From: an uncultured Collinsella sp. | Lineage (GTDB): Bacteria > Actinomycetota > Coriobacteriia > Coriobacteriales > Coriobacteriaceae | DNA length: 64,000 bases | Assembly (NCBI GenBank): GCA_902466075.1 | Contig: CABQQA010000001.1 | Location: 365,403-429,402, forward strand | Direction: 5' to 3' | Shown here: piece after piece, positions 5,851 to 52,605 of the stretch | Layout: each line of letters starts with the position of its first letter | How positions within the stretch are numbered: position 1 is the stretch's first letter | Translations under genes and position numbers: made by a program | Notes under the pieces: model-generated | What the model was told of the DNA's origin: nothing | Databases searched by the model: none | The model's input: only the letters and a program-made list of their open reading frames with translations

Positions 5851-7608
5851 ATGAACGAGATTAAGTGCCCGCATTGCGGCGAAGTTTTTAAGGTCGATGC
5901 GTCCGGCTATGCGGATATCGTCAAACAAGTGCGCAACGCCGAGTTTTCGCGCGATCTGGATGAGCGTGTGAGGGCAGTCCAGCGCGAGGGCGAGCAGGCG
6001 CTGGAGCTTGAGCGCTCGCGTTCGACGGCTGCCTTGCAAGAGGCAGAGTCTCAGCGCAACGCTCAGCTTGCCGAGCAGAAGAACACTGCGGAGCAGAAGC
6101 TGGCACAAGAGGTTGCCAAGCGCGACGCTGAGCTTGCCGAGCTGCGCGCCAAGCTCGAAGGCGCTGCCGCAGAGCGCGAGAGTGCAAGTCACCGCGCGGC
6201 GGTTGAGGCCCGCGCCGATGCTCAAAAGGAGAATGCCGAGCTTCAGCGCGAGATCGACAATTTGCGTGCGCAGCTGGAGCGCAAAGATGACGAAGCCAAG
6301 CTCGTCGAGTCGGCGACGCGCAATGCCGCTCAAAACGATTTAGCTGCACGTGATGCTCAGATTGCTGAGCTGCAGGCCAGACTTGCCGCGGCGGACAAGG
6401 CCCAGGAGATGGCGCTTGCCGCCGCTGCGGCCGAGTCGCAGCGTGAGCTCGATGCCGCTCGCAGCGAGGCCGAGCGCGCGCTTGCTGACTATCGCGTGAA
6501 GGTGCAAGAGAAGTTTTCTGCCGCAAAGGCACAGTCCGAGCAAGAGGCCGAGGGTCTGCGTGCCCAGTTGCGCGAGCAGGAACTGATGGCAAAAATGAAC
6601 CTGTCAGAGGCGGTCGCCGCGGCGGAGCGAGAGCGCGATGAGGCACGTGCCAAGCTGACGAGCGAGCTGGCGGTGCGCGATTCTCGCGAGGAGCAAGCCA
6701 AGGCGGCACACGAGCTCGAGCTTGCGCAGGCCAAGCGCGCGAGCGATGACCTGATTCGCTACAAGGATGAAGAGATTGAGCGCCTTAAGGACATGAAGGT
6801 CCGCCTGTCCACCAAGATGGTGGGCGAGTCGCTCGAGCAGCACTGCGAGACCGAGTTCAACCGTCTGCGCATGACGGCGTTTCCCAACGCGTACTTCGAG
6901 AAAGATAACGATGCGTCCGAGGGTACCAAGGGCGACTTTATCTTCCGCGAGTGCGACGCGAGCGGCAACGAGATCATTTCGATCATGTTCGAGATGAAAA
7001 ACGAGAACGACGAGACCGCGACCAAACACAAGAACGAGGATTTCTTTAAGAAACTCGATCACGATCGCCGCCAGAAAGGCTGCGAGTATGCGGTGCTCTG
7101 CACGTTGCTCGAGCCCGAGAGCGAGCTTTATAACGCAGGAATCGTGGACGTGAGCTATCGCTACGAGAAGATGTACGTGATCCGCCCACAGTTTTTCATT
7201 CCCATGATTACGCTGCTGCGCAACGCCGCCATGGGTTCGCTTCGCTATAAGCAGGAACTGGCGGAGTACAAACAGCAAAATATCGATGTCACGAACTTCG
7301 AAGCCAAGATGGAGAAGTTCAAGGATGGCTTCTCGCGCAACTACAACTTGGCGAGTAAGCAATTCGAGTCGGCAATCAAGGAGATCGATGCCGCCATTAA
7401 GCAGCTCGAGAAGACCAAGGACGACCTGCGCCGCAGCACCGAGAACCTGCGTCTTGCCCACAACAAGGCCGATGAGCTTACCATCCGCAAGCTCACATGG
7501 GGCAACAAGACCATGAAGGCAGCGTTTGACGAGGCGCATGAGGCTACACCAGAGACAAACGATGAGCCAGCCGAGGCAGATTCGTATGAGGTCGAGGATG
7601 CCGAGTAA
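5851..7608 (+). CDS. DUF2130-like protein: N-terminal CPHCG zinc-ribbon-like motif, a long Ala/Glu/Arg-rich coiled coil, and a conserved C-terminal domain
   Basis: The C-terminal region (KDMKVRLSTKMVGESLEQHCETEFN...FIFRECD...) matches my recollection of DUF2130. The start at MNEIKCPHCG follows a GGAGC RBS. The ORF opens earlier, at 5791. Confidence 0.55.
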   Translation: MNEIKCPHCGEVFKVDASGYADIVKQVRNAEFSRDLDERVRAVQREGEQALELERSRSTAALQEAESQRNAQLAEQKNTAEQKLAQEVAKRDAELAELRAKLEGAAAERESASHRAAVEARADAQKENAELQREIDNLRAQLERKDDEAKLVESATRNAAQNDLAARDAQIAELQARLAAADKAQEMALAAAAAESQRELDAARSEAERALADYRVKVQEKFSAAKAQSEQEAEGLRAQLREQELMAKMNLSEAVAAAERERDEARAKLTSELAVRDSREEQAKAAHELELAQAKRASDDLIRYKDEEIERLKDMKVRLSTKMVGESLEQHCETEFNRLRMTAFPNAYFEKDNDASEGTKGDFIFRECDASGNEIISIMFEMKNENDETATKHKNEDFFKKLDHDRRQKGCEYAVLCTLLEPESELYNAGIVDVSYRYEKMYVIRPQFFIPMITLLRNAAMGSLRYKQELAEYKQQNIDVTNFEAKMEKFKDGFSRNYNLASKQFESAIKEIDAAIKQLEKTKDDLRRSTENLRLAHNKADELTIRKLTWGNKTMKAAFDEAHEATPETNDEPAEADSYEVEDAE

Positions 7609-10489: not shown

Positions 10490-10611
10490 CTAAGTGAGTA
10501 GACTTTTTGCAATATCGCGAGCACATGGCTTTTGCACAAGGGATCTACCTGCGGTTTTATTTTTGCTATGCGGATTGTGCTTGGCTATTGCAAAAAAGTC
10601 TACTCACTTAG
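10490..10611 (+). repeat. copy B of the ~122-bp terminal-inverted-repeat element
   Basis: CTAAGTGAGTAGACTTTTT ... GATCTACCTGCGGTTTTAT ... AAAAGTCTACTCACTTAG. Same orientation as copy A. Lies in the gap between the helicase start and the trmB stop. Confidence 0.7.
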
Positions 10612-10634
10612 GTTTGAGGGTCGTTCGCTGGCGC

Positions 10635-46379: not shown

Positions 46380-47270
46380 ATGTGGAACATGACGGTCTTT
46401 ATCCAATACTTGGTCAACGGCCTGTCCATGGGCAGCGTCTACGCCATCATCGCGTTGGGCTACACCATGGTCTACGGTATCGCCAAGATGCTCAACTTCG
46501 CTCACGGCGACGTCATCATGGTCGGTGCCTATGTCTCGTTCTGCGCCACGTCGTATCTCGGCCTCCCGGGCTGGGCATCTGTAATTCTCTCTTGTGTGGT
46601 CTGCACGGTTCTCGGTGTTCTCATCGAGGGTCTGGCATACAAGCCGCTGCGCCAAGCAGGCCCTCTGGCCGTTCTGATCACGGCCATCGGCGTGTCTTAC
46701 TTCCTGCAGAACGCCGCGCAGCTTCTGTGGGGCGCCACGCCCAAGAACTTCACTTCGCTCGTCACCTTCCCGGTGCCGGAGTTCTTGGCCAAGTTCAACG
46801 TAAGCGCCGTTTCGCTCGTCACCATCGTCGCCTGCCTGGTTATCATGGCCGGTCTGATGTTCTTTACAGGTAAGACCAAGATGGGCAAGGCCATGCGCGC
46901 CGTGTCCGAGGACAAGTCCGCCGCTCAGCTCATGGGCATCAACGTCAACCGCACTATTTCGATGACCTTTGCCATCGGCTCCGCCCTTGCCGCCATCGCC
47001 GGCGTGCTCCTGTGCTCCTACTCGCCGGTCCTGCAGCCCACCACGGGCGCCATGCCTGGCATTAAGGCCTTCGACGCCGCCGTCTTCGGCGGCATCGGCT
47101 CCATCCCCGGTGCCTTTGTCGGTGGCATTCTCATCGGCATCATCGAAGCGATGGCGCAGGCTTACATTTCCACGAGCCTTGCCAACTCCATCGTCTTTGG
47201 TGTTTTGATCATCGTCCTGCTCGTCAAGCCTGCCGGCCTCTTGGGCAAGTACGTCCCCGAGAAGGTGTAG
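46380..47270 (+). CDS. livH: branched-chain amino acid ABC transporter permease
   Basis: LivH-like, 8-TM. GAAAGGGGGA RBS before the ATG at 46380. Confidence 0.8.
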   Translation: MWNMTVFIQYLVNGLSMGSVYAIIALGYTMVYGIAKMLNFAHGDVIMVGAYVSFCATSYLGLPGWASVILSCVVCTVLGVLIEGLAYKPLRQAGPLAVLITAIGVSYFLQNAAQLLWGATPKNFTSLVTFPVPEFLAKFNVSAVSLVTIVACLVIMAGLMFFTGKTKMGKAMRAVSEDKSAAQLMGINVNRTISMTFAIGSALAAIAGVLLCSYSPVLQPTTGAMPGIKAFDAAVFGGIGSIPGAFVGGILIGIIEAMAQAYISTSLANSIVFGVLIIVLLVKPAGLLGKYVPEKV

Positions 47271-49209: not shown

Positions 49210-49923
49210 ATGGCAGAGCCGATGCTTTCCGTCTACAACATCAACGTCTGGTACGGTGCCATCCACGCCATCAAGGACATCTCCTTTAACGTCAACGAGG
49301 GCGAGATCGTGGCTCTGATCGGTGCGAACGGTGCCGGCAAGTCCACAACGCTCAAGACCGTCTCGGGCCTGCTGCGCTCCAAGACCGGCTCCATCAAGTT
49401 TATGGGCGAGGACATTACTCATACGCCCGCCGATAAGCTGGTTGGTAAGGGCCTGGCCCAGGTGCCCGAGGGCCGTCGCGCCTTTTTGCAGATGACGGTC
49501 GAGGAGAACCTGGAGATGGGCGCCTACACGCAGCCCAAGTCCACGGTTGCTCCGGGCCTTGAGCGCGTCTACGAGCAGTTCCCGCGCCTGAAGGAGCGCC
49601 GTCGCCAGGTCGCCGGCACCCTTTCGGGTGGCGAGCAGCAGATGCTCGTTATGGGCCGCGCCCTTATGAGTAACCCCAAACTGCTTATGCTCGACGAACC
49701 TTCCATGGGTCTGGCGCCGATTCTGATTGAGCAGATCTTCCAGATTGTCGAGGACCTGCACAAGGCCGGCACCACGGTGCTTCTGGTCGAGCAGAACGCG
49801 CAGATGGCGCTCTCGATCGCCACACGCGGCTACGTGCTCGAGACCGGCAAGATCACCATGACCGGCACCGGCCAAGAGCTCCTGCACGACGATAACGTCC
49901 GCAAGGCCTATCTCGGTGGCTAG
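49210..49923 (+). CDS. livF: ABC transporter ATP-binding protein (LivF-like)
   Basis: GANGAGKST, LSGGEQQML and LMLDEPSMGLAP motifs. Confidence 0.85.
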   Translation: MAEPMLSVYNINVWYGAIHAIKDISFNVNEGEIVALIGANGAGKSTTLKTVSGLLRSKTGSIKFMGEDITHTPADKLVGKGLAQVPEGRRAFLQMTVEENLEMGAYTQPKSTVAPGLERVYEQFPRLKERRRQVAGTLSGGEQQMLVMGRALMSNPKLLMLDEPSMGLAPILIEQIFQIVEDLHKAGTTVLLVEQNAQMALSIATRGYVLETGKITMTGTGQELLHDDNVRKAYLGG

Positions 49924-49997
49924 GAGGTTCCGCCGTTCTACCGAACGGCGGACCGGCCGACGCTGCGCGGGCACCAGAGCGACAACTTGTCATTCAA

Positions 49998-50038
49998 AGA
50001 GGGCGGCATGACCAGAAGGTCTATGCCGCCCTCTTTTC
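49998..50038 (+). terminator. rho-independent terminator after the liv operon
   Basis: AGAGGGCGGCAT-13 nt-ATGCCGCCCTCT followed by TTTCAT. A second small hairpin (CCGCCGTTC-tac-CGAACGGCGG) lies at 49930-49951. Confidence 0.6.
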
Positions 50039-50116
50039 ATGCCAATTTGTTCGCTCTGGCGCCCGCTCGCTGTCCGTCCTCTGCCTGCGGCGTTGCTTTG
50101 GTTCTGACATTTGGGG

Positions 50117-50173
50117 TAGTCGCTGGGGACGTTCTTGAATGACTAGTCGTTTAAGAACGTCCCCAACGACTAG
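50117..50173. repeat. copy 1 of a ~57-bp GC-rich palindromic element (TAGTCGcTGGGGACGTTCTTGAAtgacTAGTCGTTTAAGAACGTCCCCAACGACTAG)
   Basis: Near-identical to 51696-51751. Folds into a stem of about 24 bp. The spurious ORFs starting in the two copies translate to the same peptide (M[TN]SRLRTSPTT). Confidence 0.75.
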
Positions 50174-50248
50174 GTCAAAAGGCTCCGAGCGCGGCGTGCT
50201 CACGCCCGTCGTGGTGTGCCCGAAGGGGGATGGCCGCTACGAGCTCGA

Positions 50249-50512
50249 TCATTTGCGAGGAGAAGACGAACCAGCCGTTGCAGATCCAATATGGATCTCG
50301 CCGACCTCGGCAAGCTGCTCGATGAGCGGAAGCCCTGTCGGGTCGTCTATTTCAACACCACCCAGAATGATGGTGTCATCGCGCAGGTCGATCTGTGTGT
50401 TGAACACAGCGAGGTTAAAGCCGGAGGCCACAAATCCGATAGCAGCCAGGACGAGCCCCGTGGCAACAAGCCCACCCGCTACGGCAAGGTAAATCTTTTT
50501 TACGCTGGACAT
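50249..50512 (-). CDS. small membrane protein; possibly the 5' remnant of a DUF4097-type third gene
   Basis: 87 codons with an N-terminal TM (IYLAVAGGLVATGLVLAAIGFV). Ends 76 nt before palindrome copy 1. Confidence 0.4.
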   Translation of the reverse strand: MSSVKKIYLAVAGGLVATGLVLAAIGFVASGFNLAVFNTQIDLRDDTIILGGVEIDDPTGLPLIEQLAEVGEIHIGSATAGSSSPRK

Positions 50513-50526
50513 GTTTGCACTCCTTC

Positions 50527-51159
50527 CTATGCCGTAAGCGGCGCCGCTTCAGCGCCCCTGCGGCTCTTATTGCCTCGATCTTTCCAGAAGGGCGAAACGG
50601 CTTTCTTCGCCCAAAGGGCAGAGAGGCACGCGATCTGCTTGGACGCCGTCCAGGCACCGGCTCCCGCGAGGAGCGCCACACCGATGGAAACGAATCCCAT
50701 TCCCATCGAGGTTAAAACGTACGGAACATGCCCGATAATGATGCCGTCCGCGGTGAACAGGAGCCCCACCACGCCCGCGCCCCCGAATGCCGCGGCCACG
50801 ATCCACACGCAGAGCGCAAGAACCCAAATGCAGATGTAGACTGTAGCGGCAACGGCGACGAACGCGAGCAGCAGCGGAATCCATACCGGAGAGCCCACGA
50901 TGGCGAGCGCCCATAGAAGCGCCGTGCTCTTGCGCTTGGTCCTCGCAATTGCGCGCGGCACGGCGGGCAGTTCGTCGAGCGTTGCCTCGGCGACCTCACC
51001 GAGCGTGCCCATGGCGGCCACAGCCTCGGCCTCCGTCATGCCGTCCTCCATACGGTCGGCGATGGCCTCCGCGTAGAACTCCTGCGTTTCCCTTACCTGA
51101 TCTGCCGGCAGGCAGGCCAGAAGCTCGCCCAGCCGGTTCAAGAACTCATCGCGCGTCAT
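50527..51159 (-). CDS. DUF1700-family membrane protein
   Basis: N-terminal MTRDEFLNRLGELLACLPADQVRETQEFYAEAIADRMEDGMTEAEAVAAMG is the DUF1700 signature. C-terminal TM helices. Confidence 0.75.
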   Translation of the reverse strand: MTRDEFLNRLGELLACLPADQVRETQEFYAEAIADRMEDGMTEAEAVAAMGTLGEVAEATLDELPAVPRAIARTKRKSTALLWALAIVGSPVWIPLLLAFVAVAATVYICIWVLALCVWIVAAAFGGAGVVGLLFTADGIIIGHVPYVLTSMGMGFVSIGVALLAGAGAWTASKQIACLSALWAKKAVSPFWKDRGNKSRRGAEAAPLTA

Positions 51160-51466
51160 GGTGCGCTCCCTTCACGTAACGGTAGATTTCCTGCACGGAT
51201 GGCCATTCGGCGAGGAACTCGGCGATACGCTCATGCCCGGTTTCCGTGATGCGGTAGTACCTTCGCAGCCGCCCGTTGTGCTCGGCGGAGCGCGCCGTGA
51301 TGCACCCCGCTTTCTCCAGGCGCTTGAGCAACGGATAGAGCGTGGACTCCGTGAGCCCCATGCTCGCGGGCACGTCCTTCACGATCTGATAGCCGTAGGA
51401 TTCCTCGCCCGAGACGGCCACGAGCACGCAGGCCTCGAGGAAGCCGCGCTTCATCTGTGCCTCCAT
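51146..51466 (-). CDS. PadR-family transcriptional regulator
   Basis: GFLEACVLVAVSGEESYGYQIVKDV...LYPLLKRLEKAGCI winged-helix. AAGGAGG RBS before the internal ATG at 51466. 14-nt overlap with the DUF1700 gene. Confidence 0.8.
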   Translation of the reverse strand: MEAQMKRGFLEACVLVAVSGEESYGYQIVKDVPASMGLTESTLYPLLKRLEKAGCITARSAEHNGRLRRYYRITETGHERIAEFLAEWPSVQEIYRYVKGAHHDAR

Positions 51467-51695
51467 CCGCACACCTCCTTTCGTAGTATACTGTGCAACA
51501 CCTACTATATGACACATAGTATATGATGTCAACAGTTGTCGTATAGGGAGTCCGGTCTGTCTGTCCCCGGTATAGCGACGAGTGTCGGTTGACGCATCGC
51601 GCGAAACACCAACCAGTGCTCCTTTGATGCAACTCTCATTCGACCACATTTCTGAGCAGCTACCTTCCCGCACCAAAGCGTGCCTCATCCCGGGA

Positions 51696-51751
51696 TAGTC
51701 GTTGGGGACGTTCTTGAATGAATAGTCGTTTAAGAACGTCCCCAACGACTA
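51696..51751. repeat. copy 2 of the ~57-bp GC-rich palindromic element
   Basis: TAGTCGTTGGGGACGTTCTTGAATGAATAGTCGTTTAAGAACGTCCCCAACGACTAC. Differs from copy 1 at 2-3 positions. Confidence 0.75.
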
Positions 51752-51763
51752 CTTCTATACAGC

Positions 51764-51869
51764 AAAAAGGGGTGCTGACCATTTCGGTCAGCACCCCTTT
51801 AAGTTGCGGTGAAATAGGGACTGAATACGGGCTCCAGAGGCCAAAACAGTCCCTATTCCACCGCAACTT
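51764..51869. other. two further strong hairpins between palindrome copy 2 and cutC
   Basis: AAAAAGGGGTGCTGACC-atttc-GGTCAGCACCCCTTT (a bidirectional terminator-like structure), then AAGTTGCGGTGAAATAGGGACTG-23 nt-CAGTCCCTATTCCACCGCAACTT (23-bp stem). Confidence 0.6.
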
Positions 51870-51927
51870 CATGGGGATGTGTGACAATGCCCGTCGGAAA
51901 ACATCTGCTGTCTTTGGGGGTCTATCT

Positions 51928-52605
51928 ATGCTGTACGAGTTTTGTGCCGAGAACTTTGAGCGGGTGCCGGCGGCTATCGATGCCGGTGCAAGGCGTATTG
52001 AACTGTGCGACAACCTTGCCGTCGGTGGCACTACACCCTCGGCCGGTGTTATCAGCGCTACAGTCAGCTATGCTCACGAGCATGACGCGCGAGTGATGTG
52101 CATGATTCGCCCGCGTGGCGGTGACTTTCATTACAACCAAGACGAGCTGCGCATGATGGAGATGGACCTGGGCCTTGCCGTAAGCGCCGGCGTTGACGGC
52201 TTGGTCTTTGGCTGCTGCAAGCCCTGTGCCGGCGGCTGGGCGCTCGACGAGCTCACCCTTGGCGCCCTCGTTATGGCTACGGGTTGCGCGACCGAGGAGT
52301 GCAAGCGCGAGTCCCTTGACATCACCTTCCACATGGCATTTGACCAGCTTTCGCCCGAGGCTCAGCTCGATGCGATTGATACACTTGCCGACTGCGGCGT
52401 TACGCGCATCCTCACGCATGGCGGCGCGGCCGGTACGTCGATCGAGGATAATTTCGATCACCTGGCTCGTTTAATCGAGTATGCGGGCGATCGTTTGACC
52501 ATCCTTCCCGGCGGCGGCATCACTACGGCAAATCGCGACGCGGTCGCAGCGGCGCTAGGCGTCTCCGAGCTCCATGGCACCAAGATCGTGCCGTTGGAGG
52601 TATAA
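51928..52605 (+). CDS. cutC: copper homeostasis protein CutC family
   Basis: MLYEFCAENFERVPAAIDAGARRIELCDNLAVGGTTPSAGVI matches the CutC N-terminus (TIM-barrel). The internal ATG is at 51928; the ORF opens at 51718, inside palindrome copy 2. Confidence 0.75.
   Translation: MLYEFCAENFERVPAAIDAGARRIELCDNLAVGGTTPSAGVISATVSYAHEHDARVMCMIRPRGGDFHYNQDELRMMEMDLGLAVSAGVDGLVFGCCKPCAGGWALDELTLGALVMATGCATEECKRESLDITFHMAFDQLSPEAQLDAIDTLADCGVTRILTHGGAAGTSIEDNFDHLARLIEYAGDRLTILPGGGITTANRDAVAAALGVSELHGTKIVPLEV

Follow-up and report, generated by a model that had tools for sequence, protein, structure and literature searches.

The short palindromic repeat examined here, found as a pair around a small padR operon in a 64,000-nt stretch of DNA (the window) from an uncultured Collinsella sp. 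(contig CABQQA010000001.1), has its closest known kinds in the repetitive extragenic palindromic sequences (REPs), with their bacterial interspersed mosaic element (BIME) and hairpin-forming doublet (REPIN) forms, and in the minimal mobile elements (MMEs) of Neisseria, which are studded with repeats. REP and BIME elements are known from Enterobacteria. Neisseria MME sites are often associated with dRS3 or Correia repeats. In Actinomycetota, we know of no described integron and of no described system of REPs with a REP-associated tyrosine transposase (RAYT). Tagged REPs carry an unpaired GTAG or CGTC tag, a stem of 6–9 bp and a loop of 4–5 nt, and are listed for eight phyla, with no Actinobacteria among them (Di Nocera et al. 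2013, PMC3733652). REPIN–RAYT systems are described from Pseudomonas (Bertels & Rainey 2011, PMC3116915), and the MME definition quoted in PMC3082526 fits the interval between livF and cutC in which the present pair lies. In gut metagenomes, Collinsella is among the genera most represented in insertion sites of horizontal gene transfer (HGT), at which a palindromic pattern was seen (PMC7771070); this pattern fits the Collinsella repeats but does not name them.

Our comparison reveals that the two palindromes of the window are ordinary members of a Collinsella-wide, modular family of extragenic palindromic repeats, of which a full-text literature search returned no description. We further favour, at a probability of roughly 0.6, the reading that these family members serve as portable recombination joints in an MME-type hotspot.

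A modular extragenic palindrome family in Collinsella

Palindrome 1 (50117–50172) and palindrome 2 (51696–51751) are each 56 bp long with TAGTC...GACTA ends, share one orientation, to go by their asymmetric centres, and are spaced 1579 bp from start to start. They are identical at 54 of 56 positions, with mismatches of C/T (position 7) and C/A (position 27). This bears out an earlier note on this DNA, which had described two near-identical palindromes flanking a padR–DUF1700 unit and was off by 1 in the end coordinate of the first. The same note called them GC-rich, which they are not (GC content of 48% and 45%, against 60.4% for the window). A chance pair is excluded, since sub-patterns of 18 and 21 nt each match four times in the window where 0.00–0.02 matches are expected, and the window holds these two copies of their type (type A, defined below) and no others. 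The spurious open reading frames (ORFs) said to start in both copies are real (MTSRLRTSPTT... and MNSRLRTSPTT...), and the likeness of their peptides, taken earlier as independent confirmation, is a trivial consequence of the repeat. An Rfam scan of the window gave no match at gathering thresholds, and at E ≤ 5 returned only sub-threshold look-alikes among eukaryotic miRNA and scaRNA hairpins.

Further copies, for which the earlier note had proposed a search, are abundant. The pattern GGGGACGTTCTT-N8-20-AAGAACGTCCCC, scanned over one genome per bacterial species, is present at at least 120 loci; among the 80 matches listed, all belong to Collinsella/Coriobacteriaceae except one in an 'uncultured bacterium' bin. 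The same pattern had no match in 2.9 million viral contigs, and a phage origin of the repeat was rejected on this ground. After removal of orthologous sites, 43 distinct contexts with unrelated flanks are left, in which the copies have sharp boundaries (TAGTCRTT GGGGACGTTCTT ... AAGAACGTCCCC AAYGACTA). By a gene caller based on third-codon-position GC content, which makes the context counts approximate, 28 of 29 classifiable sites are intergenic; of these 28, 13 lie between tandem genes, nine between convergent and six between divergent ones, near the background mix. Next to the copies lie ordinary housekeeping genes, 113 in all, spread over 152 Pfam families. The expectation of REP/BIME-like behaviour was therefore sound, in that the family is dispersed, modular and extragenic.

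The basic unit of the family is a hairpin of ~28 nt, composed of an 8–10-bp stem (for example TAGTCRTT/AAYGACTA) and a conserved 12–13-nt loop, GGGGACGTTCTT(A). Two such units joined head to head, their ends overlapping with zero spacer, make up the 56-bp palindrome; in palindrome 1 they occupy 50117–50145 and 50144–50172. Within 850 kb, where five hits are expected by chance, 152 unit clusters were found, of which 97 are such '><' dimers, 25 are single units and 22 are '>><' or '><<' arrays whose units are joined through GACTAGTC. Orthologous sites vary by ±27 nt, that is, by one unit. Three subtypes share the loop TTGGGGACGT(T/A)C(T/C)TT and have different self-complementary stems, namely TAGTCRTT/AAYGACTA in subtype A, ACTCATT/AATGAGT in subtype B and GCCGGCAC/GTGCCGGC in subtype C. 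GGGGAC hexamers of the sample stand in hairpin loops of this kind in 38% of cases, a figure raised by how the loci were gathered, against 1–5% for control hexamers. The combination of a large conserved loop with variable, compensated stems suggests that the folded strand is recognised by a specific binding partner, as far as sequence can tell.

The commonest stem polymorphism, at stem position 6 and its partner, exchanges CG for CA/TG (TCGTT/TCATT and AACGA/AATGA). Since G–T and A–C combinations are both frequent there, these changes resemble CpG-type transitions more than strict covariation.

Each palindrome of the window is one substitution away from a 'GAATGA' sub-consensus that is common at other loci, so that their similarity needs no special relationship between the two. 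Apart from the pair, a unit-like match, TCGGGGACGTACTT, occurs on the minus strand at 47247–47260, at the livH/livM boundary; it lies in coding sequence, is kept in orthologues and is probably a chance match.

The head-to-head dimers of a ~28-nt hairpin with a conserved loop make the family REP/BIME/REPIN-like. As in those elements, the Collinsella units are short imperfect palindromes in many extragenic copies, they are found alone, as dimers able to fold into one long hairpin, and mixed with other motifs in mosaics, and their subfamilies differ by complementary stem changes and contain G–T pairs in the stems. By comparison, the loop, which is 4–5 nt long in REPs, measures 12–13 nt here and is the most conserved part; the TAG is invariant but is paired with CTA in the stem, so that there is no unpaired GTAG tag; the dimer partners overlap without a spacer, unlike those of REPINs; and the host is an actinobacterium of the Coriobacteriia. 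A role as a PadR operator was considered and rejected, given that the palindrome is present at more than 40 loci without padR and that the padR operons of relatives have no palindrome.

Alleles of the livF–cutC interval

The interval that holds the pair is bounded by two conserved plus-strand genes, a livF-like ATP-binding cassette (ABC) ATPase gene on the left (49210–49923) and cutC on the right (51931–52605). Its alleles were compared in 80 metagenome loci, out of 357 detected, in which cutC is 94–100% identical to that of the window. In 27 of the 80 the livF–cutC spacer is 'empty', measuring 165–179 bp and holding a livF terminator and an 83-nt hairpin. The spacer is a mosaic of repeat modules of 206–457 bp in another ten, and in about 20 it is filled by a segment of ~2.1 kb that encodes a 530-aa secreted protein with a zinc ribbon. 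The padR trio of the window is present in only about seven (~10%), most close relatives being without it and having an empty spacer of 178 bp. The occurrence of different cassettes in different strains marks the interval as a hotspot of the MME type. Like an MME, it has conserved borders (livF and cutC), different whole-gene cassettes or none in between, and small repeats at the joints. The likeness to the Neisseria case, for which natural transformation and homologous recombination are established, is one of gene layout, and the repeat families are unrelated in sequence.

The window carries its cassette on the minus strand. A PadR-family regulator gene (PF03551; 51146–51478, 110 aa from the ATG at 51478) is followed by a gene for a HAAS-domain, DUF1700-like membrane protein (PF22564; 50527–51159, 210 aa) and by a gene for an 87-aa single-pass membrane protein without a Pfam match (50249–50512). 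A promoter-like site for padR, TTGACA-17-TATAGT, matches at 11 of 12 positions (51504–51532), and the spacer between it and palindrome 2 (51534–51695) is allele-specific. Palindrome 1 stands 76 nt beyond the stop codon of the 87-aa gene, as had been described, and hence within the 3' untranslated region (3' UTR) of the operon. The upstream distance given earlier, about 230 nt, is in fact 217 nt from palindrome 2 to the PadR ATG; palindrome 2 is ~165 nt upstream of the padR −35 box and, by the predicted promoter, falls outside the padR mRNA in the divergent promoter region.

An empty allele (L136) agrees with the window as far as 49913 and then again from 51763 onward, which indicates that in the window a block of 1.84 kb separates the livF stop codon from the old livF terminator. 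An allele composed of livF, a 185-bp repeat element, one palindrome, the 83-nt hairpin and cutC (L144) follows the window without a break through the final base of palindrome 1 (50172). An allele with the 530-aa cassette (L163) matches as far as 50176, and it is at the same GGTC that one with extra major facilitator superfamily (MFS) and AraC genes (L126) parts from the window. One edge of palindrome 1 is thus adjoined by three different contents, and allele breakpoints recur there. The insertion or deletion event proposed in the earlier note is upheld to this extent, the padR block being a polymorphic cassette whose alleles diverge at the palindrome 1 edge.

The other side of the trio varies as well. 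Contigs of the same species, recognised by an identical 87-aa protein, have three versions of the cutC–padR spacer, of 285, 462 and 506 bp, and one alternative allele parts from the window at ~51572, at a GGGGACAGAC motif. In one padR-bearing strain of the species palindrome 1 is missing, MFS and AraC genes standing in its place. Palindrome 2 is kept in five contigs (L121, L122, L124, L126 and L127).

Palindrome-bracketed blocks are found elsewhere too. In L110 the palindromes bracket 2.3 kb that carry a gene for a ribbon-helix-helix (RHH) protein together with a 428-aa ORF, L010 being the single-copy empty form, and in L022 they bracket phosphotransferase system (PTS) EIIA and DUF5105-like genes.

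As a separate observation, the comparison of L010 with L050, L088 and L110 outlines a second cassette hotspot, at which several species have one palindrome plus a terminator hairpin and other species have 1.1–2.35 kb of extra genes, the RHH gene and the 428-aa ORF, between direct copies of palindrome and hairpin. At the livF–cutC site itself, two further loci (L185 and L196) have a 3.4-kb interval with the padR trio, other repeat modules and an additional ORF that is IstB-like (IS21 helper) by eye only, another sign of repeated rearrangement there.

On the favoured reading, the near-identical 56-bp copies would act as portable crossover points, and homologous or hairpin-promoted recombination at them would lead to the gain, swap or deletion of cassettes. 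The two palindromes mark the joints of the 1.84-kb block, which carries a 3'-truncated padR–HAAS–87-aa module, and recombination between the direct pair could delete the trio to leave one palindrome, much as in L144. Palindrome 1 would also be transcribed into the padR 3' UTR as a very stable hairpin, upstream of a terminator-like hairpin in the 185-bp element.

Several observations weigh against this reading. Where alleles have nothing but a repeat in common, breaks at its edge are to some extent built into the comparison. For 12.5% of palindromes another unit cluster is found no more than 2 kb away, so that a pair as such is unremarkable; the density is estimated at about one cluster per 26–32 kb, on the basis of 32 additional clusters over 850 kb and of the two copies in the 64-kb window. 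In L005, L053, L123, L125 and L128 two single units of other subtypes take the place of palindrome 2, and the same replacement is seen in five metagenome loci (L158, L172, L190, L192 and L194), which shows that palindrome 2 is not a constant partner of the trio. The exact product of a deletion between palindromes 1 and 2 (livF, 185-bp element, palindrome, CTTCTATACAGC, terminator) is absent from the 80 loci, L144 differing from it by 43 nt that hold the old terminator. Most copies of the repeat lie beside housekeeping genes. Furthermore, no dedicated transposase or recombinase was detected with approximate queries in ~1 Mb of DNA next to the repeats. When flanks were matched across two sets of loci, neither a target-site duplication nor a clean pair of filled and empty sites came up, the comparison yielding only unit-number changes of ±27 nt and replacement-type polymorphisms, and in all three polymorphic sites examined the presence of the palindrome is accompanied by replaced flanks.

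Collinsella is an abundant and very strain-diverse genus of the human gut, and repeats at the joints of swapped blocks offer a handle on its accessory-gene turnover. They may explain the over-representation of the genus among 'palindromic' HGT breakpoints (PMC7771070). The repeat would also be useful as a strain-typing marker and be a known assembly hazard.

Transposition, transcript-level and recombinase readings

The reading that ranks second, possible though clearly less probable than recombination joints, takes the palindromes as non-autonomous elements of the REPIN/RAYT type, mobilised in trans by a single-copy transposase and inserted twice independently, with no role in the movement of the block. 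The architecture is REPIN-like, small hairpins occurring as head-to-head dimers, singly and in arrays, and the near-consensus copies in 43 distinct extragenic contexts fit too. The conserved loop and the varying, compensating stems would suit recognition by a protein, and neither window copy need derive from the other, each being one mutation from the sub-consensus. A partial GTAG/CTAC signature is present, with G before TAG in 21 of 43 sites and C after CTA in 20 of 43. The departures from the surveyed elements (PMC3733652) tell in the other direction, the TAG being base-paired rather than an unpaired tag, the loop 12–13 rather than 4–5 nt long, and Actinobacteria not among the eight phyla. 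A phmmer screen of all ORFs of at least 70 aa in the ~1 Mb around more than 120 copies, with approximate IS608, IS200 and RayT queries, found no RAYT-like gene and only one ordinary IS200, in L066, with unrelated ends. Neither a transposase nor an integrase is among the 25 Pfam families that occur most often in the 113 neighbour genes. In addition, no clean insertion is seen at polymorphic sites. An origin as a MITE (miniature inverted-repeat transposable element) was rejected, on the lack of a target-site duplication and of a clean filled-versus-empty pair in three polymorphic sites.

Less probable still is the proposal that the palindromes work at the RNA level, as stabilisers of mRNA 3' ends, as transcription barriers or as insulators, and that their position around the operon reflects this function. 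Each palindrome is predicted to fold as RNA into a very stable hairpin of 25–26 bp (−43 and −47 kcal/mol, z-scores of −7.7 and −9.9), the DNA folds having −22.5 and −26.7 kcal/mol. The centre forms G–U pairs on the plus-strand RNA where the minus strand has A–C mismatches, a hint of selection on RNA or single-stranded DNA, but this asymmetry is not found in the commonest repeat variant, GTTTGACTAGTCGTTT. Palindrome 1 stands in a 3' UTR between a stop codon and a terminator-like hairpin, the classical location of REPs in E. coli, and sites between convergent genes are in slight excess (9/28 versus 21% of the background). By comparison, palindrome 2 is not at the 3' end of either neighbour gene as annotated, because of its place in the divergent region upstream of the padR promoter, and six of 28 sites elsewhere are likewise in divergent regions. 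The idea in the earlier note that the palindromes are insulating bidirectional terminators fares poorly. Their immediate flanks (GGTCAAAA / CCCCAAAT for the first and CTTCTATA / TCCCGGGA for the second) have no T/U-tract in either copy on either strand, a terminator scan of the palindromes was negative, and separate, canonical-looking terminator hairpins stand beside both copies.

It is unlikely that the palindromes are attC-like sites of site-specific recombination, read in folded form by a recombinase, with the padR block as a captured cassette. The resemblance to integrons lies in an imperfect palindrome of ~57 bp at the 3' end of a cassette and in alternative cassettes that abut the same site. 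The three contents (nothing, the padR trio and the 530-aa gene) meet the palindrome at the same base within ±4 nt, both cassettes start with GGTC after GACTA, GGGGAC-type units or motifs stand at other cassette ends too, and the cassette of L110 lies between direct palindrome copies, with a single-copy empty form in L010. Unlike integron cassettes, the padR cassette has its own promoter, strong and sigma-70-like, and there is no integrase, attI or Pc nearby. No integrase and no tyrosine or serine recombinase was found within ±4 kb of the hotspot in eight same-species contigs, nor one among the top families listed near 40 other sites. The core boxes read GTTGGGG...CCCCAAC on both strands, the reverse of the attC order RYYYAAC...GTTRRRY. 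The right-hand junctions are heterogeneous, and most copies lie between housekeeping genes rather than at cassette arrays.

A broader version of this idea, which we regard as similarly improbable, would make all GGGGACGTTCTT-loop units (subtypes A, B and C and the related GGGGAC motifs) the sites of a hairpin-binding recombinase or a domesticated transposase of the Coriobacteriia that moves cassettes at a fixed edge nucleotide. If true, this would amount to an integron- or REPIN-like cassette system in Actinomycetota.

The truncated padR module and the neighbouring repeats

Weakest of all, and very improbable, is the reading that the third gene was once of the DUF4097 type and lost most of its length in a repeat-mediated deletion, which left an 87-aa N-terminal stump: the operon was indeed cut by a rearrangement, 121 nt from palindrome 1, but the 87-aa protein belongs to a family of that size throughout, has no DUF4097 signal and has no long relative that matches it at the N-terminus, and in intact operons the same ~87-aa gene is followed by ABC-transporter genes, not by a DUF4097 gene.

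The 139 homologues are nearly all 80–96 aa long, down to 62% identity, with residues 1–72 conserved and a variable Pro/Ala-rich tail. When a profile built from 27 members was run against 1.84 billion representative proteins, it retrieved only 66 relatives, nearly all of 75–150 aa and matched end to end. The only long matches (P0135, P0157 and P0169; 287–316 aa) are matched at the C-terminus only; their length and match position suggest that the HAAS protein and the small protein are fused in them, which in turn suggests that the two act together. The 87-aa protein has no Pfam or DUF4097 signal, even at E ≤ 10. The gene is therefore a complete member of a conserved small family. Of the two findings that the earlier note had named as contrary to its reading, one was made, that the 87-aa gene belongs to a conserved full-length family, and the other was not, the palindromes being neither absent elsewhere nor unique.

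What was truncated is the operon. In other Collinsella lineages the trio stands in different neighbourhoods without GGGGAC units. In P0018 and P0031 it is followed by an ABC ATPase gene and two further genes, in P0068 by an ABC gene cut to 105 aa, and in P0020 it is reduced to the 87-aa gene and a HAAS remnant. The homology of the window to these operons runs from 51533, at the padR −35 box, to ~50294, at about codon 73 of the 87-aa gene, where nucleotide homology ends directly past GGCGAGATC. The following 121 nt (50173–50293, minus strand), lineage-specific and forming the 3' breakpoint region, comprise the final 14 codons of the 87-aa gene with its stop codon, together with the 76-nt 3' UTR, and from these codons onward the sequence is unrelated to the operon in other Collinsella. 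The protein tail encoded here, IHIGSATAGSSSPRK (50249–50293), is specific to the livF–cutC version, whereas relatives end in a Pro/Ala-rich stretch. This stop in homology indicates that a rearrangement cut the module ~121 nt from palindrome 1. The earlier note was thus right about a cut near palindrome 1 and wrong about its victim: the operon is 3'-truncated and has lost its ABC-transporter genes, not most of its third gene.

Three-gene modules of PadR, DUF1700 (HAAS) and DUF4097 proteins are known in Firmicutes. The Collinsella module is like them in its order, with PadR followed by a HAAS/DUF1700 membrane protein whose start overlaps the PadR stop, and then by a further membrane protein. It is unlike them in that the third protein is of the distinct ~87-aa family and that the module of intact relatives precedes ABC-transporter genes. 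The copy in the window is best annotated as an orphaned regulator/sensor trio without its ABC transporter, and not as a broken DUF4097 system.

The DNA around the trio is rich in other repeats. On the livF side nearly the whole spacer is repeated DNA, the unique part being only 50173–50248. A second dispersed repeat, of ~185 bp (49926–50110), starts 3 nt past the livF stop codon and contains a small hairpin (49928–49952) and a 100-nt hairpin (49967–50066), whose core, AAAGAGGGCGGCAT...ATGCCGCCCTCTTTT, resembles a bidirectional intrinsic terminator. Judged by this core, the element probably terminates both livF and the padR operon in the window allele. It adjoins type-A palindromes in ~13–15 non-orthologous matches, and in some alleles it stands in for the native livF terminator. 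In the empty alleles the terminator hairpin follows the livF stop codon directly, and in the window a hairpin displaced by 1.84 kb by the inserted block, GGGGTGCTGACC-ATTTC-GGTCAGCACCCC followed by TTTAAGTT (51765–51797, plus strand), is identified by comparison with them as the original, now stranded, livF terminator.

A third dispersed repeat, the 83-nt hairpin with 30-nt arms (51794–51876), forms part of the cutC leader in most alleles. It is also dispersed in L052, L061, L070, L084 and L090, and is duplicated on both sides of the 530-aa cassette in strains such as L134 and L139. A fourth family, the 'GAGAGTGGATAATCTCCC' palindrome of ~83 nt, often abuts type-A palindromes elsewhere. The ~83-nt palindromic repeat ATGAGAGTGGATAATCTCCCGTTTTTGGCC...GCTCAAAGTGGGAGATTATCCACTCTCAT is frequently placed at 7–10 nt from type-A palindromes (for example at 273–340 of L002 and at 1579–1646 of L084) and holds a DnaA-box-like TTATCCAC.

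Far from the hotspot, the window contains two MITE-like copies of ~127 bp (977–1103 and 10490–10615) that share 76–79% identity and have the terminal inverted repeats CTAAGTGAGTAGACTTTT...AAAAGNCTACTCACTTAG. In another Collinsella contig a third copy stands beside the IS200, at 6735–6860 of L066.

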